In this document: positions 5,580 to 49,594 of the stretch, piece by piece
Layout: every line of letters begins with the position of its first letter
Position numbering within the stretch: position 1 is the stretch's first letter
Assembly: GCA_046290385.1 (NCBI GenBank)
Contig: JBKAGM010000004.1
Span: forward strand, 9,010 to 73,009
Source of the DNA: Gammaproteobacteria bacterium
Lineage (GTDB): Bacteria > Pseudomonadota > Gammaproteobacteria > JAGOUN01
Direction of reading: 5' to 3'
Length of the DNA: 64,000 nucleotides
The notes under the pieces: model-generated
Database searches by the model: none
Told to the model about the DNA's origin: nothing
What the model saw: the letters and a program-made list of their open reading frames with translations, nothing else
Program-made: the position numbers and the translations under genes

Positions 5580-5774
5580 CTATTCTATTACAACCTTTTC
5601 TTTTTTTTCTTTTGGTAGTCGTTGCAATATTTCTTTTCTGAAGATAGGGATATTTCTTGGTGCCTGAATACCAATTTTTACCCATCCTCTTGATATACTC
5701 AATATTTTAATTTCTAAGTCGGCGCTTTCACCGCATACGATGGCTTCGCCGGTCTGTCTTGAGAGTACTAACAT
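5580..5774 (-). CDS. csrA: carbon storage regulator CsrA (RNA-binding post-transcriptional regulator)
   Basis: MLVLSRQTGEAIVCG...RGWVKIGIQAPRNIPIFRKEI matches the CsrA fold consensus. The ORF call 5580..5822 starts upstream; the internal Met at 5774 is taken as the true start. It has a Lys/Glu-rich C-terminal tail. Confidence 0.85.
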   Translation of the reverse strand: MLVLSRQTGEAIVCGESADLEIKILSISRGWVKIGIQAPRNIPIFRKEILQRLPKEKKEKVVIE

Positions 5775-5977
5775 CTTGTTCTCCTGAATTATATTTCTCT
5801 CTATTTCCCAGACAGATTTCAAATGACAACCAACAGCAGAATGTTAGGTTTTAAAGGAAGAATTTAGAATTATTATTTTTGTTACTTCCGTTTATGTTTC
5901 CTATGATCGCTCATTTTAATGTCACTTGTAAGATCTCATTTACTATGGTAATTTACTGGGGTAATTTACATTTTTTT

Positions 5978-7312
5978 ATGGAAAAAATCATGGAAAAAGT
6001 TATTTTTCAACAAGTTACATGGGAATCTGTAGCCAAGCGTGTTCGCACCGTCAACCCAGAACTCCATAAAATTATTTGCGACTTAAGCCCAGATGATAGC
6101 TACCGTCTATATACTGGTGAGTATCCTTTTGGCTGTGAGTTTGTGAAAGAAGGAAGATTTCAATTGCCTACAAAAGGTGATGAATTAAGACCGCTCACGG
6201 ATCCAAACATTCCAAAACAAATCCAAGAAGATTTAAGTTATAACGAGGGTACCAATCCTGCGTGTTTACTCTTGAAAAATAGCATTGAAATTTATATGCT
6301 TTCATCTTTATTTCACGTTATTGGTTGGACTATTCCAGAAGGAGGCATTCTTGGAATCTCTCGCGTGTTAGCTGAAAATCCTCAGCATCCACCATTTCTT
6401 TGGAACATCAGCTCTGGAGCACGTTCTTTAATCATGTTGCCAAAAATATCTCGTGCTCGGAATCATCAGCGATTGCGTTCTGAACTAGGTATCAACATTG
6501 AAAAACCTGATTCGATATTTAAACACTGGGAAGTATTTAAAAGTATCGCAAACTGTGGAAAATTTAAACCTTGGTCTTCTAAAATATTATTTTTTTCTAA
6601 AAAATGGTTTGAACGTTTAAAAGATCCCGCGTTTCAAAGTTTTAGATGTTACTTATTAGAAAATAACAGAAAAAGATTTGACTATATCGGCAATATGTAC
6701 ATTTGGGAAATGGTCTTTAGTTTAATATTAAAAAATCGTGATATCAGACCAAGTCTATATACAAACAACTGCGCCAAATATCTTTTTCAGCTTGCAATGG
6801 GAATGACACCAGGATTAGCGCCAGCAGTCAATAATGTTTCTGCCCCTATCAAGATGTTACAAAAAGCATATATAGATATTTACGGGCTGAAAGACTACGT
6901 GCCAACTATTATGCAACCTAATTATTTCAACCCTTATGAACCCTGTGATTCAATATATCATTCTTTACAAACTCCAACATTTTTTGATACTCCTAAAAAG
7001 CGGGACAACAGCAGTTTGATATCCGACCTTTATGACATATATGCTCTATTTAATAAGTATATTTCATACATTAGAACAATGAAACTGAATATTGAAGGAA
7101 GCGCATTACATCAATCAGCACTTAACACACAAGTTGATGCATTACATCCAAGTCCAGAACGATATACCCCCATTAAATCATCTAAAACTATATTAGCAAA
7201 TGATAAAAGATTTAGTCAGTGTCTTTATCCAACAAAATATAATGAAGTTGCTATTAACAGCACCTTACTCAAAGGGTGCTTTCGGTTTTGTTATTATGAA
7301 AACAAAAAATGA
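5978..7312 (+). CDS. hypothetical protein (about 440 aa, no recognisable domain)
   Basis: Long ORF 5879..7312. The start is probably MEKIMEKV at about 5978-5990. No motifs identified by eye. Confidence 0.45.
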   Translation: MEKIMEKVIFQQVTWESVAKRVRTVNPELHKIICDLSPDDSYRLYTGEYPFGCEFVKEGRFQLPTKGDELRPLTDPNIPKQIQEDLSYNEGTNPACLLLKNSIEIYMLSSLFHVIGWTIPEGGILGISRVLAENPQHPPFLWNISSGARSLIMLPKISRARNHQRLRSELGINIEKPDSIFKHWEVFKSIANCGKFKPWSSKILFFSKKWFERLKDPAFQSFRCYLLENNRKRFDYIGNMYIWEMVFSLILKNRDIRPSLYTNNCAKYLFQLAMGMTPGLAPAVNNVSAPIKMLQKAYIDIYGLKDYVPTIMQPNYFNPYEPCDSIYHSLQTPTFFDTPKKRDNSSLISDLYDIYALFNKYISYIRTMKLNIEGSALHQSALNTQVDALHPSPERYTPIKSSKTILANDKRFSQCLYPTKYNEVAINSTLLKGCFRFCYYENKK

Positions 7313-8169: not shown

Positions 8170-9483
8170 ATGGATACTATTGATACAATAATCAAAGGTC
8201 GCTGGCTGGCTACCTGCAATAAGGCGTTTGACGTTTTAGATCGTCATGCGCTCGCAATCAACCATGGCCAAATTATTGATATATTACCTAATGATAAAAT
8301 TGAAGATCTCTATCATGCGCATACGGTTGAAACATTAGATAATCATTGTATCTTGCCAGGTTTTATAAATGCGCATACACACGTTGGTATGAATTATTTG
8401 TGTGGTTTTGCCGATGATCTGCCACTTGATGAGTGGTTAACAAAACATATATGGCCTCTTGAAAAGAAATGGGTAAGCGAAGAATTCGTCCATGATAATG
8501 CCACACATGCTATCGCAGAAATGATTCGTAGTGGAATCACTTGCTTCAACGACATGTATTTTTTTCCAAATGCCACGATCAATGCTGTTGATACATCAGG
8601 TATGCGCGCCATTATTGGATTTGGATTAGTAAACTTTGCTACACGATGGGCAAATAATGTTAACGAAGCAATAGAAGATGGTGTGATGCTCGCAGAAAAA
8701 TACCATGATCATCCACGAATAGATGTTTCTATTGCGCCACATTCTGTCTACTTACTTACACATAAAGAACTTGAGAGAACACATGAAATCGCACTTAAGT
8801 ATAAGTTGAATGTTCATATACATGTTCAAGAAACGAAAAAAGAATTGTATGACCTGTTAGGTAAATATGGAAAAAGTGCGGTTCAAATTTTATATGAAAT
8901 CGGTTTTGGCGAATGTCATTTGCAAGCTGTACATGTCACACATTTGCTAGAAGAAGATTTTGATTTATTAAAAAAGATGAACGCACACATCATTCACTGC
9001 CCAGAGTCCAATATGAAACTCGCCAGTGGATATTGCCCTACTCAAGCGTTCCTCAAAAAAGGCATTAATGTTGGTTTAGGAACAGATTCAACAGCGAGCA
9101 ATAATAATCTTGATATGATGGAAGAAATGCGTTTTGCAAGTCTGTTGGCAAAACTCGAAGATATGAATCCCGTGGCACTAACAGCAAATGATACGCTAAA
9201 GATGGCGACTATAAATGGCGCGAAAGCATTGGGTTTAGAAAAACATATAGGGTCATTAGAAGTTGGGAAACAAGCTGATTTTATTGGCATCCATCTCAAC
9301 GACATCGAAACAACGCCATGCTATAATCCTATTTCACATATTGTTTACGCCGCATCAACAGAGCAGATTTCTGAAGTTTATGTGTCGGGAAAAGCATTAA
9401 TGAAACAACGAAAACTCACCACACTTGATGAAGAAAGCATAATAAAAAAAGCGCTCAACTGGCAAAAGAAACTGAAAAAATAA
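8170..9483 (+). CDS. amidohydrolase of the TRZ/ATZ / MTA-SAH deaminase (MtaD-like) family
   Basis: 437 aa; GFINAHTHVGMN metal-binding HxH motif; HxH...H...H...D amidohydrolase architecture similar to 5-methylthioadenosine/S-adenosylhomocysteine deaminases. Confidence 0.7.
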   Translation: MDTIDTIIKGRWLATCNKAFDVLDRHALAINHGQIIDILPNDKIEDLYHAHTVETLDNHCILPGFINAHTHVGMNYLCGFADDLPLDEWLTKHIWPLEKKWVSEEFVHDNATHAIAEMIRSGITCFNDMYFFPNATINAVDTSGMRAIIGFGLVNFATRWANNVNEAIEDGVMLAEKYHDHPRIDVSIAPHSVYLLTHKELERTHEIALKYKLNVHIHVQETKKELYDLLGKYGKSAVQILYEIGFGECHLQAVHVTHLLEEDFDLLKKMNAHIIHCPESNMKLASGYCPTQAFLKKGINVGLGTDSTASNNNLDMMEEMRFASLLAKLEDMNPVALTANDTLKMATINGAKALGLEKHIGSLEVGKQADFIGIHLNDIETTPCYNPISHIVYAASTEQISEVYVSGKALMKQRKLTTLDEESIIKKALNWQKKLKK

Positions 9484-9514
9484 TTTTTTCAGTTTCACCA
9501 AAAAAAACTGTGAG

Positions 9515-10435
9515 TTATCCAAAAACCGCTTCCAAATTCTTTTGCATCTTAACGTATTTTTCGGATGACATTTTTTGAATATTTTTTATTTTCCAAGATA
9601 AAGCTGGGAAATTTTTCAAATCGAAATCCATAAACTCCCAATCAGGCTGGCTTGCATTAACAGATAATAAAAATTCTTTATCTTTTCTAGAAATTTTTGT
9701 TTTAACTAAATTTACCAATGTCTTTCTCGTGGTATCCAAATCATGATAAGTTATCTCCATATTCGTCATTCCTGAAAACTCCTTAGCATAAGTTTTCGAC
9801 AAATCTAAAAAATTAGGATTAAGCAACTCATGTATGGGTCTTCCGCCACACGCAATATAAACAACAATGGCGCTTAACAAATCGGTACTAACTCCTTCAT
9901 TCTCTAACAGTAATTTAACATCAAATAAATCTCTTGGATGTTGCCTATCGAGTGCTGCGCATATTTTTCCAGCATATAGATCCTCATGCGAAACCACAGG
10001 CATATCTAACACGCTTAATCCAAATAAATTTTCAGCAGAAGAGCATAGTCGTTTATACTCAACTGGAATTAAAACACCACGTACAACATCATTAACCTCA
10101 ATCTTAATTTGCACATGATTAGCGATGATAAATAATTTAATAGCTGTCTTATGGTGTCGATGCTCTTGTATAAGAACTCTTACATTCGGTATATATTTTT
10201 CGACATCATGTTTTATAAGAAAAAGTGATTTTTCAATATTTAGCATTGCCTCTTCTCTTGACTTTTTTTCTAGATATACTAAATCAATATCGACAGACAA
10301 TCGTGGCATTTCTCTAACAAATAAATTAATCGCTGTACCGCCTTTTAAAGCAAAACAAGACTGTTTCGCTACAAATGGCAAGACGCGCAATAGTAACCTG
10401 ACTTGTTGGTAATAATATTCTTCAAATTCATGCAT
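9515..10435 (-). CDS. AbiEii/AbiGii-family nucleotidyltransferase toxin (type IV TA / abortive infection)
   Basis: LKGGTAINLF...RLSVDIDLV (GGTAL NTase motif I) and KICAALDRQHPRDLFDV (RDLYD motif III). The ORF call 9515..10501 begins upstream. The start taken here is the ATG at 10435, which overlaps the upstream gene stop as ATGCATGA. Confidence 0.75.
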   Translation of the reverse strand: MHEFEEYYYQQVRLLLRVLPFVAKQSCFALKGGTAINLFVREMPRLSVDIDLVYLEKKSREEAMLNIEKSLFLIKHDVEKYIPNVRVLIQEHRHHKTAIKLFIIANHVQIKIEVNDVVRGVLIPVEYKRLCSSAENLFGLSVLDMPVVSHEDLYAGKICAALDRQHPRDLFDVKLLLENEGVSTDLLSAIVVYIACGGRPIHELLNPNFLDLSKTYAKEFSGMTNMEITYHDLDTTRKTLVNLVKTKISRKDKEFLLSVNASQPDWEFMDFDLKNFPALSWKIKNIQKMSSEKYVKMQKNLEAVFG

Positions 10436-11234
10436 GAGACTCATCCTTAAATACATCTTCCGGCAAAGATAATTCATGTTTTGGATAATAAACTCCTCCA
10501 CCTGAGATCACGCGCTTTCCTTTGCCAAAGTTTATTTTTTCTAAATTTAAATACTTAAACCAATTATGTCGCTCATGCTCTGAAAAAAGTAAAAATAAAC
10601 GTTTTACTTTGACAGAAGTGCAATGCTCTAATAAATATTGAAAAACGTCAGATCGACAAGAATGTAATCCCTCAAATAATAATTTTGTTTGAGATAATGA
10701 AATTTCCTCAGGAACTAATGCCAATGTTTCTAAGATGGCCCGCTCAACACATGACATCTTGACATGGTATTCGCCGATGGCATGTCCAATCAATGTGTCA
10801 GATAAATACGAAGAAAATAATTTTTTATGCGTCACATAAATAGATGCGTTTTTTGAAAACATTTTTTTAAACCACTTAGGTAAGGTCATACCAACCTGTG
10901 GATGTTGAAAAAGATATAATGGCTCCTTCGCCTGCATCGGCACAAAGTGAGCAAAACCCAAACGCTCTAATGCAGACCGACCTCCTATATGTATAGGTAG
11001 TTGTAAATGCTGTTGTAGTGCATATAACGCACCTTCTGGGCGTATTTCATCACCTTCTCTGGCATAAACACCAGGCGCCAAACGCATTAGCCAGTGGTGC
11101 TTCACATAACTATCAGCAAGTTGACGATAAATACCTTGTTGATTTAATGCGTTTTGCACGGCAATTGTTCCTTTTGGCCAGTGTTTTAATAGATAGTTTA
11201 ATTTTCCATTTTTTTGTCTACTCATACTTGTCAT
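10428..11234 (-). CDS. AbiEi-family antitoxin/transcriptional regulator (type IV TA system)
   Basis: 268 aa; an N-terminal AbiEi_4-like segment (GIYRQL...WLMRLAPGVYA) sits immediately upstream of the AbiEii gene, which is the canonical order. The two genes are translationally coupled. Confidence 0.6.
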   Translation of the reverse strand: MTSMSRQKNGKLNYLLKHWPKGTIAVQNALNQQGIYRQLADSYVKHHWLMRLAPGVYAREGDEIRPEGALYALQQHLQLPIHIGGRSALERLGFAHFVPMQAKEPLYLFQHPQVGMTLPKWFKKMFSKNASIYVTHKKLFSSYLSDTLIGHAIGEYHVKMSCVERAILETLALVPEEISLSQTKLLFEGLHSCRSDVFQYLLEHCTSVKVKRLFLLFSEHERHNWFKYLNLEKINFGKGKRVISGGGVYYPKHELSLPEDVFKDESHA

Positions 11235-11247
11235 ATCTCATTTTAAA

Positions 11248-11270
11248 TAAACTACTTGATAGCAATAGTT
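11248..11270. promoter_or_regulatory. inverted repeat in abiEi promoter region (candidate autoregulatory operator)
   Basis: aaactacttgatagcaatagttt with outer arms aaacta/tagttt, 14-36 nt upstream of the abiEi start. AbiEi proteins are known to bind inverted repeats in their own promoters. Confidence 0.3.
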
Positions 11271-11652
11271 TATTATAATACTTTTTTGACAAGCATTAAT
11301 AGTCAAATTAAATGTTTTTTAAACTATGTCTTGGACTGTTGTTACAAGTATATTTATACCCTTTTTGTTCCCAATTGTCTAGTGATTTTTGTAAGGGTAT
11401 TGCTAAATGAAGGGATTAGAACTGGCCTATTGATTTTTAAAAGCCCCCCCCCGGATAAACAAAGTTTTAATGCAACAGACCCAAAATCGTTTTTTTCAGG
11501 TCCCACGTATAAAAGCAAAAAATAGGCTTGAGAATGAAAAAATCTAAATGATTTTTAATGCATCATTATTATTCTTTTAAACATCTCGCTATCAATATAT
11601 TGATATCTAAGATAGTATAAATATAAGAAAAATCGAATAGAGCTCTACCATA

Positions 11653-15014: not shown

Positions 15015-16412
15015 TTAAATATCCCTTTTTAGTCTAACCCCATGATAAATATAAAACAATATAACAGGTGCGATCATAATGACAATGCCACTAGTAAACG
15101 CGATAATGTAATGCATATGTCCACCAACATCTATGGAATCTGGAGGGAAAAATCCAACAATAAGTGTGACAACACAACCGAACAAACCTAACAAACCAAC
15201 CACACATGTTCCAAATTTCCCAAATGGTATAGCAAATGGGCGTTCTTGATCAGGATATTTAAACCGCAGACGAATCGCGCTAACGAACATTAAGAGATAC
15301 ATCAGCATGTATAACTGCGTGCTCAAGTCTGTAAGCAGCCAATATGATGCATTCACCGTTGGCATAAACAAAAAGGCAACACAAATTAAACTCACTAACA
15401 AAGCTTGTATAATAAGGACGTGGGCTGCGACACCATAACTATTTTCTTTGGCAAAATAGTCTGGCATGAAATGATATTTCGCCGCACGTAACAAACCTTT
15501 AGCTGGCGAAATAACCCAGTTAATCATTTCCCCAAAGCTACCTATTAATATCATTATCATTAAAACAGGTAATAAAAATTTCAAATGATATCCAGAGAAA
15601 AACACCCCAAAGGCTTGCATTACACCATCAACGATATTAATTTGATCACGAGGAATAACTATTGCAATAGCGAAAGCGCCCATAATCATGGTGATCAAAA
15701 TAATTAACACAGAATAGAACATTGCCTTTGGAAATGTTTTTTGAGGATTCTCAACCTGCCTTACATGAACGGTTGCCAACTCCATTCCTAAGAATGCTGT
15801 CATAATAGCCGTCAATGAAATCCAGCTTTCCGAATGGCCCATTTTTGGCAGTAATGTATCTAGTTGAAAATGTAAATGTATAGGTTTTCCCATGACTAAC
15901 CACGTCATTGAGAACCCAATAATCAGCAGAACGGGAATAATAAACCCTAAGACACAGCAAATACTGGCAAAGCGTGCCGAAGTCTTTATGCCATACAAAT
16001 TAATGATGGTGATAGCCCAAAATGAAATCAAAATGATGGACACTAGATAAACTCTATTCTCTACCAACGCAGGATCTATCAAAAAGGCAATAGTCCCTGC
16101 AATAAACGATAATATAGTAGGAAACCATACCATCGTATTGATCCACTGCAACCATATTGCTAAAAATCCCACCTTATTGCCAAAGGCCATACGCGTCCAA
16201 TCAAACACGCCGCCGTATTCTGTCCATGCAGAAGAAAGTTCTGCTGAGATAAGCGCAGCGGGAATAAGAAAAACAACCGATGCAAAAATAAAAAAGAAAA
16301 TTAATGTGTCGCCAAACAACGCCGTCGCCGGCAAATTACGAATACTATCGATGGAGACAACGATTAACATCACCAACGCGAATGTAGAGATTTTTTTGGT
16401 AGCAGTTGTCAT
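15015..16412 (-). CDS. APC-superfamily amino acid permease
   Basis: 465 aa, 12 TM, typical APC permease layout. Confidence 0.75.
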   Translation of the reverse strand: MTTATKKISTFALVMLIVVSIDSIRNLPATALFGDTLIFFFIFASVVFLIPAALISAELSSAWTEYGGVFDWTRMAFGNKVGFLAIWLQWINTMVWFPTILSFIAGTIAFLIDPALVENRVYLVSIILISFWAITIINLYGIKTSARFASICCVLGFIIPVLLIIGFSMTWLVMGKPIHLHFQLDTLLPKMGHSESWISLTAIMTAFLGMELATVHVRQVENPQKTFPKAMFYSVLIILITMIMGAFAIAIVIPRDQINIVDGVMQAFGVFFSGYHLKFLLPVLMIMILIGSFGEMINWVISPAKGLLRAAKYHFMPDYFAKENSYGVAAHVLIIQALLVSLICVAFLFMPTVNASYWLLTDLSTQLYMLMYLLMFVSAIRLRFKYPDQERPFAIPFGKFGTCVVGLLGLFGCVVTLIVGFFPPDSIDVGGHMHYIIAFTSGIVIMIAPVILFYIYHGVRLKRDI

Positions 16413-17581
16413 TCCCTTTCCTTTTTCATTGACGGCTTTTTAGGACTGTATGCAAAAGCTGGACTTTGCATAGCATAAAAACGCCGATATTCCTCGCCGA
16501 GCGGTCCCGACAAAAATGCTTGGCTGTTAACTAATTGTATAATACCTTTCGTTGTTAAATCTACATGATACGTATTACGAAAATCATACTCTAGCTGCCA
16601 ATGAGCCGCACTTCCTTTATGCAAAGGCAAATAATATACGCGAAAATCCTCAAGCACACCCGTAACCGGTTCGTAATCGTAAACTTTTATTCCTGGATTA
16701 TTTCTTACAACGGGACTAATTGATGGCGATGTAAATACAACTGATTGATGATTGTTTGGAAGTGATAAAATTGAAAATCCATCGGTATGCACGTGGCCAG
16801 CAAAAAGAGCCTGGATGTTATTTCTATGTTTTTCAATAATACGGAAAAATTCGCGCAAATAATCCTTTTGCCAAAACGTCTCTTTAATTGAGTATTTCGC
16901 ACGTTTGTATTCATTGATTGTTGGCGGAATATGCATAGCAACCCACGCAACTCGATGCAACTTTTTTGCTTCATCAAGAACTTCATTCAACCATTGCAAT
17001 TGGGCCTTTGCGTCTGTTACATGTTGCCTACGATCTGGATCTCTTATGCTAAATAAATTGGCATTCAGCGTGATTAATCTAATATTTGAATTTGGCAAGT
17101 CTCTGTAATAATATCCTGCGTGTTTAAAAGTTTCTATACTATCATGATCAAGAACATGATGTTTTATTTTTGCAGCATTTGATAAAAAATCACCATCAAC
17201 AACTGTCAATGTATTGCCGCCGTAATTATCATGATTACCCATAGTGATATAAATTGGCGTCTCCGGAAAAATGTTTTGAACCGAATTTATTAGTGATTTT
17301 AAAAGGTCATTTATGTAGGCTTTCGATTGATGAATGCCATGAGGATAATAATCACCCAATAATAAAATTTCACTTGGATGTAACTCTCCAGAAGTTTTTA
17401 AATGCCTTAACTCATTTAGTGTCGATTGCCATAAAAAGTTATTTGTTTCATAACGGTATCCTGGATAATGTTTTTCTAGATTAAGCGCATCATAATGAAT
17501 ATCTGTTAACGTTAATAATTGTGAGGCAGAAAATACTTGCGAAAAACAGAAAAAGCATATTATAAATATTATTTTTTTCAT
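16409..17581 (-). CDS. secreted calcineurin-like metallophosphoesterase, acid-sphingomyelinase-like phosphodiesterase type
   Basis: Signal peptide MKKIIFIICFFCFSQVFSAS. Metallophosphoesterase motifs DIHYD, GDYYPHG, GNHDNYG, HIPP and GHVHTDGF, the last resembling the GHTHxDEF of the ASM/SMPDL3 family. Confidence 0.65.
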   Translation of the reverse strand: MKKIIFIICFFCFSQVFSASQLLTLTDIHYDALNLEKHYPGYRYETNNFLWQSTLNELRHLKTSGELHPSEILLLGDYYPHGIHQSKAYINDLLKSLINSVQNIFPETPIYITMGNHDNYGGNTLTVVDGDFLSNAAKIKHHVLDHDSIETFKHAGYYYRDLPNSNIRLITLNANLFSIRDPDRRQHVTDAKAQLQWLNEVLDEAKKLHRVAWVAMHIPPTINEYKRAKYSIKETFWQKDYLREFFRIIEKHRNNIQALFAGHVHTDGFSILSLPNNHQSVVFTSPSISPVVRNNPGIKVYDYEPVTGVLEDFRVYYLPLHKGSAAHWQLEYDFRNTYHVDLTTKGIIQLVNSQAFLSGPLGEEYRRFYAMQSPAFAYSPKKPSMKKERE

Positions 17582-18711
17582 AAAATTTTAAACTCTATGG
17601 TTTCTTCAACATGCTTACGCAAGTATTCAATAAAAGGCGTTCCGCCAGTACCAACGCCAGTAGGATTAGCATCGGATGCTTGACTTTGTTTATGGATATA
17701 CTCGATAGCATAACTTAAATGCGTTTTTCGGAATCTTGCCAAAAGATCAATACAATCATTATAAATTTTTTTTAGCTTCAAATCTCCAGAAAGCACTTGT
17801 TCTCGTACATTCGTATTTTTTTCCACATACTCTAGTAACATTCGATGATTCTTTGGCATGTAACCACGCATTTCCTGCAAATATTTTTGCAACATATCTT
17901 TCTTATGCTCGATACCCAATAGCGCATCACACATAGGAATGATAGTACTTTGCGCGCCAGTTTCACCACGAAATTTTTGAGGCTTCCCTTGATATTCTTC
18001 AACTCCCTCATAAATTAAGCCTTCGGGTAATACGGGATTATTCAACCAACCATGAATATAAGGACGAACACGTTGATAATAAATATATGGGTCACAACGC
18101 TCGGGTATACGATCGAGCGCTTCACAAATAGCGTTAAGGGCGTTTACTATTGGTTGAAGTGCCTCTCCTAATCCTATTTTATTTTCAACAATGATCAATA
18201 CATTCTTTACCAAAGCTTCGGCTTTAGCTTCGATATCGACATGCACCAAAACAAACCATTCCTCATCCTGTCCACCTAAAAAATTTTGCAATAATGCGAT
18301 GTTGCCTAATTCAATTGGTCCTTGTGGGTTTAAGCGCATCCAATTATAAAGTGCGTAAGATGCATAAGATAACACAGGGGGACGCTCTAAATATTTCGCT
18401 ACTTGATACCAAGGCTGTGCTAACACTTTAGGTAGTACATCAACAGCCGGATTTTCACCCCAAACATATGCGTGCCCCAAATACGACAAAATTAGCATTG
18501 CGCGTTGATAATGAGATTTATCATTTAATTGATTAATAGGAAATTCTGGTAACGATTTTATCTTGTTACGTAAAGTCGTGCTCATTAACCATTTTGGTAA
18601 TGTGCGCGCAATATCTTCCCAGGGTTGAAAAATAGAAGGAAGTATTGGAATTGGATCTTGTTTTGGTAGGAATCCACGTGTTAATTCTTCGAATGCCATA
18701 TTGAGCTCCAT
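17578..18711 (-). CDS. indoleamine 2,3-dioxygenase (IDO) family haem dioxygenase homologue
   Basis: Collinear blocks match human IDO1: AYVWGE, PPVLSYASYALYNW, GLIYEG...GETGAQS (vs GGSAGQSS), YLQEMRGYMPKNHR (vs FLQDMRRYMPPAHR), VREQVL, a conserved proximal His in RFRKTHLSYAIEYI, and GTGGT near the C-terminus. Confidence 0.8.
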   Translation of the reverse strand: MELNMAFEELTRGFLPKQDPIPILPSIFQPWEDIARTLPKWLMSTTLRNKIKSLPEFPINQLNDKSHYQRAMLILSYLGHAYVWGENPAVDVLPKVLAQPWYQVAKYLERPPVLSYASYALYNWMRLNPQGPIELGNIALLQNFLGGQDEEWFVLVHVDIEAKAEALVKNVLIIVENKIGLGEALQPIVNALNAICEALDRIPERCDPYIYYQRVRPYIHGWLNNPVLPEGLIYEGVEEYQGKPQKFRGETGAQSTIIPMCDALLGIEHKKDMLQKYLQEMRGYMPKNHRMLLEYVEKNTNVREQVLSGDLKLKKIYNDCIDLLARFRKTHLSYAIEYIHKQSQASDANPTGVGTGGTPFIEYLRKHVEETIEFKIL

Positions 18712-18756
18712 CTTAGCCGATATTATAATACCCTTTTAGGCGCACAAGGAAAAGAC

Positions 18757-19275
18757 ATGCCCACAGAAATTACGATTAGCCAATCCGTTGCCATACTCGT
18801 CGATGGAAACAACTTAGAACGCAGTATTCATGATGAATGTGGTGATGAAAGTGCCATGCTAAATTTCGACACACTCATTCCAAAATTGCTCGATAATCGA
18901 TCGCTCAATCGCCTAGTATATTTCCGTGAAGGAAAACACATTTCATCCAAACTTGCTGAGCGTCTACATCAAAATTATCACGGCTCCGTCAGGCCTTGTC
19001 ACAAAAGCGCGGATATTCCATTAACTATTAAAGCCATGCAACTGTCGAGCAAAGTAGACACCATCATCATCATGTCCGGTGATTCCGATTATATTGAATT
19101 AGTGCGGCACTTAAAATCTGAGGGCGTACGTGTCGAAATCGCAGCGGTTGCGGCAACAACTTCAAATCTTCTGCTTAAAGACGCGGATTTTTTTCACAAA
19201 ATCACTTCGGAAGATTGGTTTACGTTACAACCAAAACACAAAACAACTCGACGCAAACGTTCTAGTTCAAATTAA
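18757..19275 (+). CDS. NYN/LabA-like domain protein (predicted RNase-fold protein)
   Basis: ILVDGNNL...MSGDSDY...G motif pattern of NYN/DUF88 domains. Confidence 0.6.
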   Translation: MPTEITISQSVAILVDGNNLERSIHDECGDESAMLNFDTLIPKLLDNRSLNRLVYFREGKHISSKLAERLHQNYHGSVRPCHKSADIPLTIKAMQLSSKVDTIIIMSGDSDYIELVRHLKSEGVRVEIAAVAATTSNLLLKDADFFHKITSEDWFTLQPKHKTTRRKRSSSN

Positions 19276-28699: not shown

Positions 28700-29652
28700 T
28701 CTGGCACCTTGACTGTTTCATTCAACAACAATGCTAATATCGCCTGGCGGACATACAAACCATTAGCTGCTTGTTGAAAATAATACGCATGTTTTGTTTC
28801 GTCAATGACCGTATCTATTTCGTCAACACGTGGCAATGGATGCATAATTTTAAGCTCTGGTTTAGCTCGTGCTAAATCATTTAATGTTAGTCTATAAGGA
28901 GCCTGCGAGTAACTTTCAGTCATACGCTCTCTTTGCAAGCGCGTCATATATAAAATATCTGCTACTTCAATTACCTCATCAAGTGACTTATGAAGGCTAT
29001 ATTCGATTTTTTTCTGCTGAAGAAATGCTAACAGCGACTCAGGTAATGCCAATGAATCATCTGAAACAAAATATAATCTCGCTCTCAATATACGTAATGC
29101 ATGCACTAATGAGTGTACCGTTCGACCGTAACGCAGATCACCCATAAAAACGATATTAATATTATCGCTGTCAGCATAACATTCACGAATCGTGAATAAA
29201 TCTAACAAGGCCTGTGTTGGGTGCTGATTGGCGCCGTCTCCAGCATTGACCACAGGAATATTCACAGCCTCTGAAACATTTTTTGCCGATCCTTCCTCAG
29301 GGTGCCTTAGTACAATTAAATCTGCGTAACCCTCTATAACTCTCATAGCATCTACAAGGCTTTCACCTTTTTTATGCGATACGGTATTTGCATCAGAAAA
29401 ACCAATAACCTTTGCGCCTAGACGAAGCGCTGCGGATTCAAACGATAGTCGTGTGCGCGTGGATGGTTCGTAGAAGCAATTCGCTGTGATTTTATTTTTT
29501 AATAACTCTGGTGCCGATTCTTGCTTAAACTGTTTTGCTAACTGAATAATTCGGCAAATTTCTTGATCAGATAAGTCGTTTATAGAAATCAAATGGCGTC
29601 GATAAAGTGTATTACTACCTGTTATTTTCAAGCCATTTGTTCGAGTTGCCAT
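28696..29652 (-). CDS. pyrB: aspartate carbamoyltransferase catalytic subunit
   Basis: STRTR carbamoyl-phosphate-binding motif, HPTQ, and LRYGRTVHS. No pyrI follows. Confidence 0.9.
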   Translation of the reverse strand: MATRTNGLKITGSNTLYRRHLISINDLSDQEICRIIQLAKQFKQESAPELLKNKITANCFYEPSTRTRLSFESAALRLGAKVIGFSDANTVSHKKGESLVDAMRVIEGYADLIVLRHPEEGSAKNVSEAVNIPVVNAGDGANQHPTQALLDLFTIRECYADSDNINIVFMGDLRYGRTVHSLVHALRILRARLYFVSDDSLALPESLLAFLQQKKIEYSLHKSLDEVIEVADILYMTRLQRERMTESYSQAPYRLTLNDLARAKPELKIMHPLPRVDEIDTVIDETKHAYYFQQAANGLYVRQAILALLLNETVKVPE

Positions 29653-32600
29653 TCTGCAATCCTCTTTTCTATGCGCTTCGCTTCATTCTGCTTGGCTTGT
29701 ATAAAATCACGATAAGATTTAACTGGAATACGTTTTTTATCAAATCCAGATAATGCTTTCAACATTATACTAGCTAATTGTATGTTAGTAATGAGAGGAA
29801 TATGATGATCAACAGCCAAACGACGCATGACGTAACCATCCGTAATATATTGCTCACTATAATCTGGTGAGGGTATTGTAACAATTAAATCAAGCTTTTG
29901 TTCCAAAATATGCGTACGAATATTAGGTTCTTCTTCATCGCTAGATTTATAAAGTAATGTGGAAGGGATGCCATGGCGTTCTAAAAAAGCATGTGTTTTT
30001 TCTGTAGCAAAAAACTTGAATCCCAAAAGGTTCAGTTTTTTAATAGGTTCTAAGAGTTTTACTTTGCTATTTTCGCCACCCAGGCTTAAAAACAAATTTT
30101 TCCCGCGAACAATTTGATCAGTCGCACGCCAAGATTGGTAAAAAGCTGCTGTCAAATCATCTCCGATCACACCGACTTCACCAGTTGAGGCCATTTCTAC
30201 GTGCGCAACAGGATCTGCGCCTTTTAAGCGATTATATGAAAACTGAGGCGTTTTAACACCGACGTAATCCAATTCTAGCGTTTCTACATCTTTGGATGCA
30301 TGTTGATTTAAAATAACCGCGGTTGCAGATTTGATAAAATTATGCTGTGTAACTTTTGAAACAAATGGAAATGATCGTGATGCGCGGACATTACATTCAA
30401 TCACGCGAATTGCATTATTCTTTGCAATAAATTGAATATTAAAAGGTCCTGTAATTTTGAGTGCTTTAACGACTTGCCGTGTAATTTTTTTTGTTCGACG
30501 AATGGTTTCTAAATACAATTGCTGTGGAGGCAATACGATAGTCGCATCCCCAGAGTGTACACCTGCGTTTTCAACGTGCTCCGATATAGCCTCAACTACG
30601 ATTTCACCATCATCTGCAACACCATCGATTTCTAGTTCTTTTGCGCCTTCTATAAAGTCAGATAAGACAACTGGATGATCAGGAGAAACAATGGATGCTT
30701 CTTTTAAGTAATGCTCTAATTCTGATTCATTACGAACAACCTTCATTGCGGCCCCGGAGAGAACATACGAAGGGCGAATTAATACTGGATAACCTACTTT
30801 TTTTGCAAACCTTTTTGCATGCGCGATCGTTGTAACTTCTGTCCATGCCGGCTGATCAATATCCAGCTGGTTAAGTAGCGTTGAAAACGTTTTTCTGTTT
30901 TCAGCCATATCAATATTGGCCGGTTTTGTACCAAGGATAGGATAACCAGCCTGATGTAATGGCATAACAAGGTTGTTTGCGATCTGGCCACCAACACCAA
31001 CAACAATACCTTTTGGATTTTCAAAGTCAGCAATATCTTGTGTGCGCTCTAAACTAAGTTGCTCGAAGTATAAACGATCAGACTCATCATAATCTGTCGA
31101 TACTGTCTCAGGATTCGAATTAATAATAATCGACTTTTCACCAAACTCTCGCAAAGTTCTGGATGTGATGACACCACACCAATCAAATTCTACCGAGGAA
31201 CCAATACTATAAGGACCGGATCCTAGTACAATCACAGGTGATTGCTCAGAGGGCTCAACATCGTGAGAAACACCATGATAGGTCATATACAAATAATTGG
31301 TTTGGGCATCAAATTCGCCAGCTAATGTATCAATTTGTTTTACAAAAGGAGTAATCCCCCATTCTTTACGCTGTTTTCGAATAGCTTGCTCATCTGTCTC
31401 ACGCAATGTTGCAATACGTTTATCAGAAAAACCATTTTTCTTAGCACGCAAGAGTAATTCTTCTGTTAATTCTTTGCGTTTTAATTGATTTTCTAACATG
31501 ACAATTTGATATATATGATTTAAAAACCATGGGTGAATGTTCGAAAGTGCCTGTGCTTTTTCAACGTTACCACCCTGTTTGAAAAATTCTGCAATAGCAA
31601 ATAATCGTCTATCCGTAGGAAAGTGAATTTCATGTTCTGGATTCTCAATCGTATAAGGATAATCACAGATACTACTCGCGCCAATATTAAGCATAGCAGC
31701 CGCTTTTTGTAAGGCCTCTGGAAAACTGCGCCCAATGGACATAACTTCGCCCACACTTTTCATTTCTGTACCAATGCTGCGATCAGAATTTTTTAACTTT
31801 TGCGTATCCCAGCGAGGAATTTTAACCACAACATAATCGAGTGCTGGCTCGAAAAATGCGCAAGTTTTTTGTGTAATACTATTTTTAATCTCATGTAATG
31901 GATAACGTAATGCCAGTTTTGCTGCAACAAATGCTAGTGGATAACCTGTCGCCTTAGATGCTAAGGCACTCGAGCGTGACAAACGCGCATTCATTTCAAT
32001 AACACGATAATCGCCGTTTTCGGGGTTTAGTGCATACTGAATATTACATTCGCCTAATATTTTAAAATGCCTTGCCGCTTTAATAGCAATACGCCGTAGG
32101 AAGTGATATTCGTTATTCGTTAAGGTTTGTGACGGCGCAACGACAATGCTCTCACCTGTATGAACACCCATGGGGTCCATATTTTCCATGTTACAAATAG
32201 TTAATGCACTATCATTACAATCACGCACGATCTCATATTCCAACTCTTTCCAACCGATGAGATATTCTTCAATTAAAACATGCGGTGCGACAGCAAGAAT
32301 TTCTGTAGCGCGTTCTCGTAGTTGCGCCTCAGATTCAATTTTACCCGAGCCAAGACCGCCCAAAGTAAAACCGGAACGCATCATTACAGGATAGCCTATA
32401 CTTTCTGCAGCTTCTAATACCTCTTCAAGCGTACTGCAGCAATAGCTTTCTGGTGTTTTAACACCTATTTTTAGCAATTCTGATTTAAACGCATTACGAT
32501 CTTCAGTCAAACGGATAGCATCTAATGATGTTCCGAGAACTTCTATATTGTGTTTTTCCAATATGCCCTGATCAGATAATTCCAACCCTAAATTTAAAGC

Positions 32601-32906
32601 GGTTTGACCGCCAAAACCGAGCATGATGCCATCAGGTTTTTCTCTTTCGATAATTTGTTTGACTGTTTCGACATTTAAAGGTTGTAAGTAAAGCTCATCG
32701 ACTAATCCGGGTTCGGTCTGGACGGTAGCAATATTAGGATTAACTAAAACAACACGGATTCCTTCCTCTTTCAATGCCTTAATGGCTTGTGAACCAGAGT
32801 AATCAAACTCTCCAGCTTGCCCAATACGCAATCCTCCTGATCCAAGCAGTAAAACTTTTTTATTCTTAAACCCTTTTTTATCAAAGAAGCTCATAAAATC
32901 TCTCAA
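29628..32906 (-). CDS. carB: carbamoyl-phosphate synthase large subunit
   Basis: 1092 aa with duplicated ATP-grasp halves. The GQAGEFDYSG N-terminal motif occurs twice. Confidence 0.95.
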   Translation of the reverse strand: MRDFMSFFDKKGFKNKKVLLLGSGGLRIGQAGEFDYSGSQAIKALKEEGIRVVLVNPNIATVQTEPGLVDELYLQPLNVETVKQIIEREKPDGIMLGFGGQTALNLGLELSDQGILEKHNIEVLGTSLDAIRLTEDRNAFKSELLKIGVKTPESYCCSTLEEVLEAAESIGYPVMMRSGFTLGGLGSGKIESEAQLRERATEILAVAPHVLIEEYLIGWKELEYEIVRDCNDSALTICNMENMDPMGVHTGESIVVAPSQTLTNNEYHFLRRIAIKAARHFKILGECNIQYALNPENGDYRVIEMNARLSRSSALASKATGYPLAFVAAKLALRYPLHEIKNSITQKTCAFFEPALDYVVVKIPRWDTQKLKNSDRSIGTEMKSVGEVMSIGRSFPEALQKAAAMLNIGASSICDYPYTIENPEHEIHFPTDRRLFAIAEFFKQGGNVEKAQALSNIHPWFLNHIYQIVMLENQLKRKELTEELLLRAKKNGFSDKRIATLRETDEQAIRKQRKEWGITPFVKQIDTLAGEFDAQTNYLYMTYHGVSHDVEPSEQSPVIVLGSGPYSIGSSVEFDWCGVITSRTLREFGEKSIIINSNPETVSTDYDESDRLYFEQLSLERTQDIADFENPKGIVVGVGGQIANNLVMPLHQAGYPILGTKPANIDMAENRKTFSTLLNQLDIDQPAWTEVTTIAHAKRFAKKVGYPVLIRPSYVLSGAAMKVVRNESELEHYLKEASIVSPDHPVVLSDFIEGAKELEIDGVADDGEIVVEAISEHVENAGVHSGDATIVLPPQQLYLETIRRTKKITRQVVKALKITGPFNIQFIAKNNAIRVIECNVRASRSFPFVSKVTQHNFIKSATAVILNQHASKDVETLELDYVGVKTPQFSYNRLKGADPVAHVEMASTGEVGVIGDDLTAAFYQSWRATDQIVRGKNLFLSLGGENSKVKLLEPIKKLNLLGFKFFATEKTHAFLERHGIPSTLLYKSSDEEEPNIRTHILEQKLDLIVTIPSPDYSEQYITDGYVMRRLAVDHHIPLITNIQLASIMLKALSGFDKKRIPVKSYRDFIQAKQNEAKRIEKRIAEWQLEQMA

Positions 32907-37690: not shown

Positions 37691-39016
37691 TCATAAACTT
37701 TCAAATTGCTCCTTGGACAATAATCCATTTACCAGCACAGGATAATGTTCCCTGATATAACCACGAAAAACACTCCGAACAATGCTATGTTCTAATCCAT
37801 TACGATGATATAAGTTCAACATCATTTGATTGTTCTTCTCTTCTAAACTTGAAATAAAACTCCTTTCCATAACTCGCTTTTCTGTATCTGGTAATAATCG
37901 ATATGCTTTCTCTATAAAATCGACAACATAATGCTGATAACGATTCTTTAATGCTTCATCATGCTTTCGTTTCTGTTGAAGCTTCAACATCTCTTTTTCT
38001 TTTTCAAGATATTGTGACTCTAAATGCTGTCGGCTCGATTTCGCTTGATAATCACCGCGTAATGCACTTAGAAAATAAGCCGCGAGATTATTGATTTCTC
38101 CCTTCTTAAAGCTTGATGATTGCTCAACAAATGAAATTTTTTCAGCAATACGCTCTTCTCCAAAGTCATTAAGAAGATCAGCAGCCTGTGTCTTGGTAAA
38201 ACCAAAGGTTTTGAGTTTTGCAATATATGCTATTTGATCTTCAGTGAGTGCGTAGCTCTCCAATTCAGTTTGTCCTATACGATTACGTTTTTCTCGAGCA
38301 CTGAGTTTAAATCGAATTTGTTTAACTTGTCGGCGCTCTTTTTTAATTTCGGGTTCAACAATCAAATCTGAAAACGCATTTACCTCCTCTATTGATTTGT
38401 CGAGAACACGTCTTTTGAAATCTCTAAAAATATCGTATTTACCGGAAGGCACTCCCATTAATTTGCGAAAAACATCGAGTTCAAACCATTTCGTTGACGA
38501 CAACCCTTTGTAGCGAACACAATTTTCATAAAGTGCGAGTCCATAACTAGATTTAAATTTAGACTGAATGATGAGATTAATTTTACCGTATACGGAAGGC
38601 GAGTAAAGCAACTCTTTCATTCTTGGACTATACGCATAATAGCAATTAGGCCCTTTTATGCTTACGCTGGCAATAATTGTACTTGCTGTCCAATCTTCTT
38701 CAGAACAATTATCATTGACTACGTTCCATTCAACAATCGTTGATACAAGCCCACGTAATGCATCTTTTATGACGCCGTGATTATTTCCTCTATACCCAAT
38801 AATCTGACATAATTCCCGGATGGTTATTTGATGCTCTTCAACGTTTTTCAATTCTGGGTAGGCATGGAACAGCAGCGCATTATTAATTTTGCGTTGTAGC
38901 AAAGTCAACATGCCAGAACTATGTATCGCAGCAGTATGTTTTTTTAACTCACCGTTCTTGCGTGCGATCTGGCCTTGCTTACTTTGTGTTGATTTTATCA
39001 TTCCTTGATCCTGCAT
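37691..39016 (-). CDS. iteron-type plasmid replication initiator protein (Rep_3-like)
   Basis: 441 aa. The N-terminal region resembles Rep_3 initiators, and the gene lies immediately downstream of five iterons. The C-terminus is a Lys/Glu-rich coiled region. Confidence 0.55.
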   Translation of the reverse strand: MQDQGMIKSTQSKQGQIARKNGELKKHTAAIHSSGMLTLLQRKINNALLFHAYPELKNVEEHQITIRELCQIIGYRGNNHGVIKDALRGLVSTIVEWNVVNDNCSEEDWTASTIIASVSIKGPNCYYAYSPRMKELLYSPSVYGKINLIIQSKFKSSYGLALYENCVRYKGLSSTKWFELDVFRKLMGVPSGKYDIFRDFKRRVLDKSIEEVNAFSDLIVEPEIKKERRQVKQIRFKLSAREKRNRIGQTELESYALTEDQIAYIAKLKTFGFTKTQAADLLNDFGEERIAEKISFVEQSSSFKKGEINNLAAYFLSALRGDYQAKSSRQHLESQYLEKEKEMLKLQQKRKHDEALKNRYQHYVVDFIEKAYRLLPDTEKRVMERSFISSLEEKNNQMMLNLYHRNGLEHSIVRSVFRGYIREHYPVLVNGLLSKEQFESL

Positions 39017-47605: not shown

Positions 47606-49594
47606 CTAAGTAGAAAATGTGAGACTACTGTCTATTGAACCACATTCAATATCAAAGTTATTTGATCGTGATTCTTGATTGCAACATTTGATATTCGAAT
47701 ACACCTTTTTCATTGTTGATACTGAAAAATTAATTATCTCTTCTTTAGTTGATATAAAAAGAAAAGCGACCATGGAAGTAGCAAGCATAATGCCCACAGT
47801 CATACCGACAGGCATACCCCATTCATGCATTGGTTCGTAGGAGCTGATAGCGCTAAAAGCGTTGAATCCCCAAACCAAGTTATCAACGATAGTTGTAGCC
47901 CATACTATTGTATTTAACCAAGCTGGAACATCGACTTCGGTTTGGCTTTTATTTTTTTGACCCCAATTGAATCCGCCGGCACCAAAACAGGTAGGCATAT
48001 TTGGATCCCATTTTATTTTTTTCATAATATTGTAGCTGGATGTGCCTTGAGTTGCCGCTCCTAGCAGCCCATTACAAAAGCCTAAAAACCCGATCATTGG
48101 CGCAGGTATTAAATCGTCTTGTAAAGTTGTGCTGAAAAAATTATTATCGCAATAATAATACATCCCGGTCGCTAAAGCAAAAACAACCGCAAGGATGAAA
48201 GCTCCGGCATGTTCGTTACTATCACCTAATACTTCCCTCCATTTTCCTTGAGATATTAAATGAAGGTCGTCAATAAATCCATCTATTGTCTTCAAACTCT
48301 TAAGACGCCAATTGATATTAGATTTAAGGATACCAATTATAGCTGTGAGAAAGTAAACCCAGAATTTAACTGAAATACTACTGTTGGGCGTTGCGCCAAT
48401 AGAATTTTGGATAGAAGAGTATGCTTTTATCATCGAACAAACCCATGGCATATACCCGAGTGTTATAACTAAAAAAAGTGATGGAATATAATTTAATATC
48501 TTAATTCTGAGTTTATTATCCGGATTGTCGAAGCATGCTGTTGGTTTGGGTAATAAATAAAATAGCCAACTCATAAAATTATTTTCAAAATAGTGTAATT
48601 CTAGAGGAGAGTACCCTTTGTCTCGTAAGCTTTTTAATTTTCTTTCTTCTGCGCCATACGTAATGATTAATTTTCTAGTGGCGTCGCTTGTATTTTGATC
48701 GTCTTCAGAGCCTCGGAAATTCTCTTCACTTCTAGCTGGTAGAAAGGGTTCCTTCTGCTCTTCTTCTTGGTCGAATGTGTTATAATAGTAGTTGTTGGGA
48801 TGCAGTGGTAGCATATTAAACTGTTCTAGCGGCTCATAATTAAAGCAAGATGTTTCATTATCTTCTTCATCCTTGAATGAAGGAGCAGGGCTTATGAGAG
48901 TTTCATTAAGTTGTTCAATAGAAGTGATTATTCTAAGGCCTTTGTTTTTAATATTAGCATCACACTTTCTATCTCTAGCCTTCATATCCAAAATGTGCAG
49001 TTGTTCTTTAAAGAGATCGTCATTCTCAAGTGTAAGATTACGCCACACAAGAGGGTCCACATACACATTAACATAGAGTGAGTCATTTACGGGTTCATTT
49101 GACTGACGTATCTGTCTGATCGCACGTTCTATAGCATATAAAAAGTCTAATTGCTTTGAGTTTAACTCTTGGTTCCATGTGTTGAGTGTATTGTTCACCT
49201 TGGTTGTTAAATTTGAAATGCCAGTACAAATCTGAGTAATGATTTTTATTATTAGAGGAAGACAGCCAGTATTTTCTAATTCATCTGTACTTGAAATATA
49301 TGAAAGGTTTCCTAAAATATTGTAAGAGGTAAAAGCTACCCCGGGAATAAAATAAAAAATAAAAAACGCCGTCCATAAGATTTTTTCTCTGTGAATACCA
49401 ATATTTTTTTCGATATTAGTTCTTAAAGATAATGTGGTTGCTTTGGGGTGAGGGTTTGGATTGTAGTAACCGTTCTCTATATCTATACTTTCAAATGAGC
49501 AACCATCATCGAGGTTATCACTTTGTTCAGAGTGGGTGCCTGGAGTTTGTGGGTCACTTGTCCCTTGAGTTTCTAGAAAAGTTCTAGGAGTCAT
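47606..49594 (-). CDS. large hypothetical membrane protein (candidate secreted effector)
   Basis: 662 aa. Acidic N-terminal region, one early TM, an about 230 aa soluble middle, then 6 or more TM helices. No known motif. Confidence 0.5.
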   Translation of the reverse strand: MTPRTFLETQGTSDPQTPGTHSEQSDNLDDGCSFESIDIENGYYNPNPHPKATTLSLRTNIEKNIGIHREKILWTAFFIFYFIPGVAFTSYNILGNLSYISSTDELENTGCLPLIIKIITQICTGISNLTTKVNNTLNTWNQELNSKQLDFLYAIERAIRQIRQSNEPVNDSLYVNVYVDPLVWRNLTLENDDLFKEQLHILDMKARDRKCDANIKNKGLRIITSIEQLNETLISPAPSFKDEEDNETSCFNYEPLEQFNMLPLHPNNYYYNTFDQEEEQKEPFLPARSEENFRGSEDDQNTSDATRKLIITYGAEERKLKSLRDKGYSPLELHYFENNFMSWLFYLLPKPTACFDNPDNKLRIKILNYIPSLFLVITLGYMPWVCSMIKAYSSIQNSIGATPNSSISVKFWVYFLTAIIGILKSNINWRLKSLKTIDGFIDDLHLISQGKWREVLGDSNEHAGAFILAVVFALATGMYYYCDNNFFSTTLQDDLIPAPMIGFLGFCNGLLGAATQGTSSYNIMKKIKWDPNMPTCFGAGGFNWGQKNKSQTEVDVPAWLNTIVWATTIVDNLVWGFNAFSAISSYEPMHEWGMPVGMTVGIMLATSMVAFLFISTKEEIINFSVSTMKKVYSNIKCCNQESRSNNFDIECGSIDSSLTFST

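Follow-up and report, generated by a model that had tools for sequence, protein, structure and literature searches.

An AbiEi_3–AbiEii gene pair and the question of its control

Two overlapping genes on the minus strand of a 64,000-nt stretch of a Gammaproteobacteria bacterium genome (assembly GCA_046290385.1, contig JBKAGM010000004.1, positions 9,010 to 73,009; this entire stretch is referred to as the window) read from sequence as an AbiEi-family antitoxin gene upstream and an AbiEii/DUF1814 nucleotidyltransferase toxin gene downstream, with an inverted repeat in front of them. The questions raised by this locus are whether the genes form an intact toxin–antitoxin module, as proposed in a first-pass annotation of the sequence, and whether the repeat is a part of its regulatory region. 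Membership of the two proteins in the AbiEi and AbiEii families is evident both from sequence and from predicted fold, and the pair is very probably an intact bicistronic AbiE-type toxin–antitoxin, or abortive-infection, cassette of the AbiEi_3–AbiEii subtype. The module itself is an ordinary one of a known kind, and the only fresh element is the operator-like architecture that recurs across the family.

The toxin gene abiEii (9515–10435, minus strand) encodes a 306-aa protein of the DUF1814, or Pol-beta-type, nucleotidyltransferase kind. The antitoxin gene abiEi of the AbiEi_3 subfamily (10428–11225, minus strand) encodes 265 aa when counted from the second ATG, while from the first ATG the open reading frame (ORF) spans 10428–11234 and yields 268 aa. 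The start at 11225 was chosen because of its conserved 22-nt distance from the operator-like repeat, and this choice agrees with the NCBI antitoxin record, which also begins at 11225 (265 aa). The two genes share the 8-nt stop/start overlap ATGCATGA (10428–10435) that had been noted at first pass, with the toxin ATG at 10435–10433 and the antitoxin TGA at 10430–10428, and a Shine-Dalgarno-like sequence AAGGA is found at 10444–10448, 8 nt upstream of the toxin ATG. The geometry of this junction (10428–10448, minus strand) is as expected for translational coupling. The same bicistronic arrangement, with the antitoxin gene directly upstream and overlapping or abutting the toxin gene, is seen in 62 of 66 two-gene loci among the homologues, which fall at –38 to +20 nt, and 35 of the 66 have a 4-nt overlap of the ATGA type.

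Both proteins are already public under AbiE names, in an NCBI metagenome-assembled genome (MAG) labeled “Gammaproteobacteria bacterium” and in the Logan assembly of SRR22269038; the NCBI name of the identical toxin is “nucleotidyl transferase AbiEii/AbiGii toxin family protein.” NCBIfam gives no match for either the toxin or the antitoxin.

The toxin matches the Pfam AbiEii profile PF08843 with E = 9e-34 (117.9 bits, cut-off 22.5), as had been anticipated, and the PADLOC AbiEii profile with E = 7e-112 over profile positions 2–289 of 290. The family is very large and taxonomically broad, with 8000+ homologues carrying the same domain, the closest of them only about 50% identical to the window toxin. 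All motifs published for AbiEii/DUF1814 proteins (Dy et al., 2014; PMC3985639) are present. Motifs I and II, hG[G/S]-x15-DhD with an Arg four residues ahead of the first Asp, correspond to G32-G33, followed after exactly 15 residues by D49-I-D51, with R45 four residues before D49; motif III (K-x6-R, KLxAaxxR-like) is K157-ICAALD-R164, and motif IV (+DxxD) is R168-D169-L-F-D172. Of the two motifs quoted in the first-pass annotation, RDLFD is indeed found at residues 168–172, while “GGTAL” is absent, the actual sequence being GGTAI (residues 32–36). In an alignment of 25 homologues G32-G33, R45, S47, D49, D51, E113, K157, R164, and the R168–D172 region are invariant, and the window toxin retains all 51 invariant columns of the toxin family alignment. 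S47, located within R45-L-S47-V-D49 two residues before D49, is a candidate phospho-acceptor, being in register with T65, the phospho-acceptor of Streptococcus agalactiae AbiEii (D67 minus 2); in Rv1045 the phospho-acceptor is S78, in the motif I region.

The AlphaFold2 (AF2) model of the toxin has a predicted local distance difference test score (pLDDT) of 93.6. Its Foldseek matches are, in order, MenT4/Rv2826c (6Y56, E = 1e-7), TglT/MenT3 (6J7x), JHP933 (4OK0, E = 8e-6), and MenT1, with generic terminal uridylyl transferases ranking far behind the MenT and JHP933 structures. Searches of PDB sequences with the single toxin and with the family profile yielded nothing significant; the best match was JHP933 (E = 0.17, not significant), whose alignment to the profile spans the K...RDLFD region, that is, motifs III and IV.

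The antitoxin matches two Pfam profiles, AbiEi_3_N (PF17194, E = 2e-26, 92.1 bits, residues 9–100) and AbiEi_3 (PF11459, E = 1e-36, 126.3 bits, residues 114–258), the cut-off being 26 for each, and is covered nearly at full length by the PADLOC AbiEi profile (E = 2e-75). PF13338 (AbiEi_4), which had been expected at first pass along with PF08843, is not matched at E ≤ 0.01, and the antitoxin is assigned to AbiEi_3. Among 404 antitoxin homologues, 120 were listed, and all 120 carry PF17194 and PF11459, one of them also PF13338. The window antitoxin retains all 15 invariant columns of the family alignment. Its AF2 model (pLDDT 88.5) is matched in Foldseek by Rv2827c (1ZEL, E = 1.4e-7, TM-score 0.62/0.58 over 285 columns) and S. 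agalactiae AbiEi (6Y8Q, E = 4.8e-7), the next match having E = 0.2; sequence searches of PDB with the single antitoxin and with the family profile returned noise only. Since MenT4 has Rv2827c as its cognate partner, the fold matches of the two window proteins converge on a single characterized pair.

An operator-like repeat upstream of the antitoxin gene

The inverted repeat TAAACTA-N11-TAGTTTA is located at 11248–11272 (minus strand), the right arm ending 22 nt before the ATG at 11225. The string in which the repeat had been recognized initially, aaactacttgatagcaatagttt, lies at 11249–11271 on the plus strand, and perfect arms extend to 9 nt, AATAAACTA-N11-TAGTTTATT (11246–11274). In the window alone the repeat is marginal: the score of the best inverted repeat in the 100-nt upstream region has p = 0.045 compared to dinucleotide shuffles, and for the 7+7 pattern with at most two mismatches 0.8 occurrences are expected per 64 kb and one is found, at 11248–11272. 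As the window palindrome alone barely beats chance, we collected 80 related loci, and the real support for the repeat comes from its conservation across loci of many phyla whose proteins are no more than 35–45% identical.

The sample comprised 80 AbiEi_3 loci from GTDB species representatives, with 35–43% identity to the window antitoxin, from Acidobacteria, Nitrospirae, Omnitrophota, Oligoflexia, Elusimicrobia, Bacteroidetes, Legionellales, Rickettsiales, and others; the genome of the window itself is not among the representatives sampled. Within 100 nt before the antitoxin start, AAACT...AGTTT is present in 24 of 76 regions, compared to none of 68 control segments and 0.8 ± 0.9 in shuffles, and the 7-mer TAAACTA is found in 47% of these regions and in none of the controls. 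When TAAACTA-N6-13-TAGTTTA was scored, 38 of 76 loci reached at least 12/14, compared to 3.1 in shuffles, and the perfect score of 14/14 was observed in four loci including the window, and never in shuffles. Rescanning with the spacer of 9–13 nt gave 34 loci with at least 12/14, of which 24 have an in-frame ATG exactly 22 nt past the right arm, and in none of these 24 loci do the 22 nt contain a Shine-Dalgarno-like sequence.

The spacer between the arms has its own consensus, containing a –35-like TTGAC(A/T), and a TAnnnT-like hexamer, often after TG, is found approximately 10–16 nt past the right arm, 6–7 nt before the ATG. From these positions we infer a promoter with its –35 element enclosed by the repeat and with a transcript that would start at the ATG or next to it. 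The operator-to-start stretch of the window (11226–11247, minus strand, 22 nt) also lacks a Shine-Dalgarno sequence and contains a weak extended –10-like element, TGA at 11238–11240 followed by GATATG at 11232–11237. The window promoter is assigned here by the family pattern, and for the antitoxin mRNA a very short leader, or none at all, is predicted. An alternative –10 element, a perfect TATAAT, abuts the left arm at 11272–11277. A palindrome centered on the ATG, X-ATG-rc(X), was also considered; it is clear in Legionellales-type loci and absent from the window.

In the reverse direction, metagenomes were scanned for the exact TAAACTA-N11-TAGTTTA-N22-ATG. At least 120 matches were obtained, 115 of them with enough downstream DNA, and 27 of these 115 assessable listed matches open an ORF matching the AbiEi_3 profile (E from 1e-17 to 1e-111). 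Most remaining matches open ORFs of a few codons, as expected by chance in A+T-rich DNA. A 17-base pattern that predicts one gene family in 23% of its assessable listed occurrences cannot be a coincidence. Since nothing but the AbiEi_3 gene accompanies the site consistently across phyla, the antitoxin is most likely the factor that binds the TAAACTA/TAGTTTA repeat. The initial suggestion of an inverted repeat in the promoter is supported by its family-wide conservation, and the operator role remains the predicted one.

A proposed 91-bp control region with locus-specific boxes

A second kind of repeat was found when 50 loci were anchored on the 22-nt spacing and the box at positions –8..+11 relative to the start codon was compared to the upstream sequence. 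The box is repeated exactly 72 bp upstream, with the mean identity of 10.5/19 compared to approximately 5.5 at the 70 other offsets considered; the offset of 72 is the single best in 27 of 50 loci, and in several more the best one is off by 1–2 nt. Each locus has boxes of its own, which are often palindromes of the type X-AT(N)-rc(X), such as AATCTAGTATAACTAGATT and ATTCTAGTATGACTAGATT. The complete layout, Box1(19)-14-arm(7)-11-arm(7)-14-Box2(19), is two-fold symmetric about position –35 and spans 91 bp. In the window, Box2, TGACAAGTATGAGTAGACA, surrounds the start codon (11215–11233, minus strand), and Box1, TGACTATTAATGCTTGTCA, centered 72 bp upstream of it (11287–11305, minus strand), includes a palindrome TTTGAC-N11-GTCAAA (11285–11307) and lies partly beyond 11290, where the module had been delimited at first pass.

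Whether all AbiEi_3 antitoxins share one control region of this kind, spanning phyla and 91 bp long, with the arms flanking the –35 element of a leaderless promoter and the second box in the start codon and the first three codons, and with the window as a slightly degenerate instance, is in our estimate an even call. A description of such an AbiEi_3 architecture or operator was not found in the literature searched.

The repeat could instead be something other than the antitoxin operator, that is, a chance A+T-rich palindrome, a hairpin of the leader RNA, or a site of a host factor, with autoregulation exerted via the boxes or absent. The marginal statistics of the window repeat taken alone fit this explanation, as does the TATAAT abutting the left arm, which would put the repeat inside a transcribed leader. 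The paired boxes at the 72-bp distance change from locus to locus, as operators specific for a repressor usually do, and the AbiEi homologue Rv1044 fails to bind the region upstream of its own gene. At the family level, however, chance is excluded by the counts in upstream regions, the 22-nt spacing, and the reverse test in metagenomes; a host factor is unlikely given hosts as diverse as Acidobacteria, Nitrospirae, Bacteroidetes, Elusimicrobia, Legionellales, and Rickettsiales; and the site is constantly accompanied only by the AbiEi_3 gene, whose product has the more conserved part of the alignment consensus in its N-terminal domain (motif GIYRQLA..Y...GWL). We regard a non-operator origin of the repeat as rather unlikely, and retain the antitoxin as its candidate binder.

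If the antitoxin binds the invariant arms, they would form a universal AbiEi_3 operator, and cross-repression between paralogous or incoming modules would be possible, while the variable boxes would account for the specificity of each locus, perhaps through a DNA loop of 72 bp. The operator/promoter model fixes the start codon, predicts leaderless expression, and supplies a 25-bp probe for electrophoretic mobility shift assays, and the signature, as it consists of DNA only, finds AbiEi_3 modules in metagenomes. For this particular genome the consequences are small: it has one more AbiE cassette, correctly annotated by automatic means, in a lineage where AbiE has already been reported.

Proposed mechanism and comparison with known systems

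The mechanism proposed for the window pair is modeled on S. agalactiae AbiE, Mycobacterium tuberculosis MenAT1/3/4, and Serratia AbiE-2. By this analogy, the toxin would be a Mg-dependent nucleotidyltransferase that halts translation by adding nucleotides to the 3′ ends of tRNAs, with a bacteriostatic effect. The C-terminal domain of the antitoxin would dock on the toxin and induce auto-phosphorylation of an active-site serine, predicted to be S47, thus switching the toxin off, and its N-terminal winged helix would bind TAAACTA-N11-TAGTTTA over the –35 region and repress the operon. Finally, the toxin would be freed when the supply of the antitoxin stops or the phosphorylation is reversed, for instance, upon phage infection or loss of the locus. 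The target of the window toxin, its nucleotide preference, S47 phosphorylation, DNA binding by the antitoxin, and the biological role of the pair are all transferred from these relatives and may differ in detail; in the host, the role may be phage defense or stabilization of its own locus.

Two details of the initial assignment have been revised by a 2026 preprint on S. agalactiae AbiE. The module had been called “GTP-type,” following Dy et al. (2014; PMC3985639); this GTP result came from phosphorylated AbiEii, and the unphosphorylated enzyme prefers UTP over CTP and labels, or tails, tRNA (10.64898/2026.01.19.700257). It had also been assigned to type IV, whereas AbiEi acts by binding the toxin in a complex and triggering its auto-phosphorylation at T65, and the system has been reclassified as type VII (10.64898/2026.01.19.700257). 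More generally, translation is blocked by MenT toxins (DUF1814) through nucleotide addition at tRNA 3′ ends.

At the family level, the window pair is likened to AbiE-2 (AbiE-A2/AbiE-T2) of Serratia sp. ATCC 39006, which has an antitoxin of the same Pfam subfamily, AbiEi_3, and an AbiEii/DUF1814 toxin. AbiE-2 is an experimentally validated toxin–antitoxin pair, the one studied member of AbiEi_3, and expression of its toxin perturbs tRNA pools, as seen by RNA-seq (PMC7725324). It differs in that its operator is undescribed and its host is a free-living enterobacterium.

The best structural matches, M. tuberculosis MenAT4 (Rv2827c/Rv2826c; 1ZEL and 6Y56) and MenAT3 (Rv1044/Rv1045 TglT; 6J7x), share with the window pair a two-domain antitoxin and, in the motif I region of the toxin, a serine that is a phospho-acceptor or, in the window, a candidate one, but the proteins are only 11–17% identical and the Pfam family of the antitoxin is different. 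Autoregulation by Rv2827c relies on inverted repeats that overlap its promoter and extend as far as the start codon (PMC7319586). The founding members of the family, AbiE of S. agalactiae and Lactococcus lactis, have the same antitoxin-first bicistronic operon, toxin motifs I–IV, and an antitoxin with a winged-helix N-terminal and an antitoxic C-terminal domain, 6Y8Q being the second-best fold match, and they are subject to negative autoregulation through promoter inverted repeats (PMC3985639, PMC7319586). Their AbiEi is of the COG5340/DUF4095 type, 195 aa compared to 265 aa in the window, with 14% identity in the structural alignment. Geometry of the operators differs as well, although the principle is similar: S. 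agalactiae has two 23-bp repeats 3 bp apart and Rv2827c four 23-bp repeats in two pairs with 13-bp gaps (PMC7319586), whereas the window has one pair of 7–9-bp arms with an 11-bp gap, at a position usually fixed in AbiEi_3, and two 19-nt boxes 72 bp apart.

Helicobacter pylori JHP933 (4O8S/4OK0), also a DUF1814 nucleotidyltransferase, is the only PDB sequence approached by the toxin family profile, at the non-significant level given above. It is shorter (232–260 aa), and the records returned for it describe no AbiEi-type partner.

Several observations weigh against an intact cassette with the proposed control. The nearest homologues are distant (approximately 50% identity for the toxin and 47% for the antitoxin), and, as a solved structure is not detectable by sequence, the residue equivalences rest on motif register and predicted folds. 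The –35 match in the window is weak (TTGCTA, off register), as is the –10 (GATATG), so that expression could be low; the window boxes have identity of only 11/19, tied with one other offset; and, given two kinds of repeats in the family, the conserved inverted repeat and the locus-specific boxes, either may carry the specificity of the antitoxin. S. agalactiae AbiE gave no protection against 32 coliphages, hence a defense role should not be assumed.

The weak promoter hexamers and the degenerate boxes would also fit a module that is a decaying, non-functional remnant, with an inactive promoter or proteins despite intact-looking genes. The organism may be host-associated, a condition where relaxed selection is common, and in the Aquicella homologue described below the toxin gene is interrupted by a group II intron. 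Still, both window ORFs are of full length and keep the invariant columns in both alignments, the arms are perfect (14/14, extendable to 9+9) and placed at the exact 22-nt spacing, and both models are confidently folded, which makes decay very unlikely and favors the intact cassette.

Mobility and possible role of the cassette

A different view of the same intact genes is that the cassette is a selfish addiction, or stabilization, module, a relic of a plasmid or another mobile element, kept because its loss frees the toxin rather than for phage defense. Plasmid records with AbiEi_3 homologues number 326, of which 251 are conjugative or mobilizable, and phage records have none; in an Aquicella lusitana plasmid the module adjoins the replication initiator; and AbiE stabilizes plasmids and integrative and conjugative elements (PMC3985639; PMC11062541). 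The neighbors of the window genes recur in none of the 80 related loci, which indicates that the cassette moves as a two-gene unit. The lack of coliphage protection by S. agalactiae AbiE agrees with this view; on the other hand, phage resistance is known for L. lactis AbiE and further DUF1814 pairs, the window cassette sits among housekeeping genes with no mobile-element genes adjacent and has a host-like composition, and addiction and defense are not mutually exclusive. We consider the purely selfish role a real possibility that falls somewhat short of an even call.

The cassette is mobile on evolutionary timescales, without a sign of a recent island in the window. The accessory island suggested at first pass is not borne out, as the 64-kb window contains no tRNA genes that could have served as an integration site, PADLOC detects no dedicated defense-system proteins among the neighbors and the large Pfam-less ORFs (the methyltransferase has only weak generic matches), and GC content at third codon positions (GC3) of the two cassette genes, 0.26–0.28, is within the host range of 0.26–0.41. 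Integrase and transposase domains are absent from the 22 window ORFs scanned with Pfam.

The best plasmid match of the AbiEi_3 homologues is found in Aquicella lusitana (Coxiellaceae). On its plasmid 4 (NZ_LR699117.1, 2380–5771) this closest plasmid homologue is located directly after the replication initiator gene, and its antitoxin and toxin genes are separated by an inserted group II intron (ltrA). The promoter there has the full layout, a palindromic box, TAAACTA-N11-TACTTTA, TATAAT, and then tctagtATGactaga.

Such modules had been described at first pass as rare in reduced genomes of intracellular bacteria. This statement is weakened by the taxonomy of the homologues, as among the 80 best GTDB loci seven come from Legionellales, Coxiellaceae, or Legionella MAGs and one from Rickettsiales, in addition to the Aquicella plasmid. 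AbiE modules have also been reported from obligately intracellular Legionellales, with two loci among the 1,180 coding sequences of Ca. Centrionella and one in Ca. Paracoxiella.

Neighboring genes and the host

Downstream of the cassette, a perfect A+T-rich palindrome with 14-bp arms (9468–9496, 100% complementary in the repeat search) lies between the ends of the convergent amidohydrolase gene (9483) and abiEii (9515). Its predicted RNA fold has an energy of –16.1 kcal/mol (z = –3.0), a U-run follows it on the minus strand, and it is probably a bidirectional intrinsic terminator, missed by the consensus terminator scan because of the A+T-rich stem. This hairpin contains AAACT..AGTTT and was considered as a second operator; as a family feature this was rejected, with 2 of 46 loci having it, and it is read as a terminator. 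The consensus promoter and terminator scan was uninformative, giving 9 promoter-like sites compared to 10.7 expected and no terminators, and Rfam finds no RNA family across the 64-kb window.

The cassette had been placed between orphan genes and a transporter cluster. According to Pfam, the transporter side stands, with genes for a BT1 transporter, DUF2062, an SNF symporter, and an amino-acid permease, while the downstream genes are not orphans, being an Amidohydro_1 enzyme (8170–9483) and then a methyltransferase; on that side only the ORF at 5879–7312 has no Pfam match.

The window also encodes CarB, a ClpA/B-type ATPase, cytochrome bd, a SerA-like dehydrogenase, and biotin synthesis genes, hence the genome is probably not extremely reduced. 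The lineage is probably Legionellales-like and host-associated. The nearest homologues of CarB (29628–32906, minus strand) are only 66–71% identical, the named ones including several Chlamydiae (Chlamydiales, Simkaniaceae, Rhabdochlamydiaceae), Verrucomicrobia, and Gammaproteobacteria. Possible reasons for this pattern are exchange of genes between bacteria associated with amoebae, a lineage that branches deeply, or an error in binning.

An ORF at 37691–39016 (minus strand) has the Rep3_N and Rep3_C domains of a plasmid-type replication initiator and is located approximately 27 kb from the AbiE cassette, in otherwise chromosome-like DNA; it could be a remnant of an integrated plasmid, or the contig could be a large replicon. 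A gene of the indoleamine 2,3-dioxygenase (IDO) family (17578–18711, minus strand) adjoins Metallophos and NYN-domain genes (neighbors at 16409–19275), and near it are BT1, SNF, POT, and amino-acid transporters and MgtC, a set reminiscent of host-associated Legionellales.

Three large ORFs, at 5879–7312 (plus strand), 47606–49594 (minus strand), and 52902–54950 (minus strand), encoding 477, 662, and 682 aa, respectively, have matches in neither Pfam nor PADLOC and may be lineage-specific effectors. A CsrA-family gene of 64 aa (5580–5774, minus strand), called in the matching Logan contig and shorter than the ORF length cut-off used for the window, is located between a rhomboid gene and the 477-aa orphan ORF.

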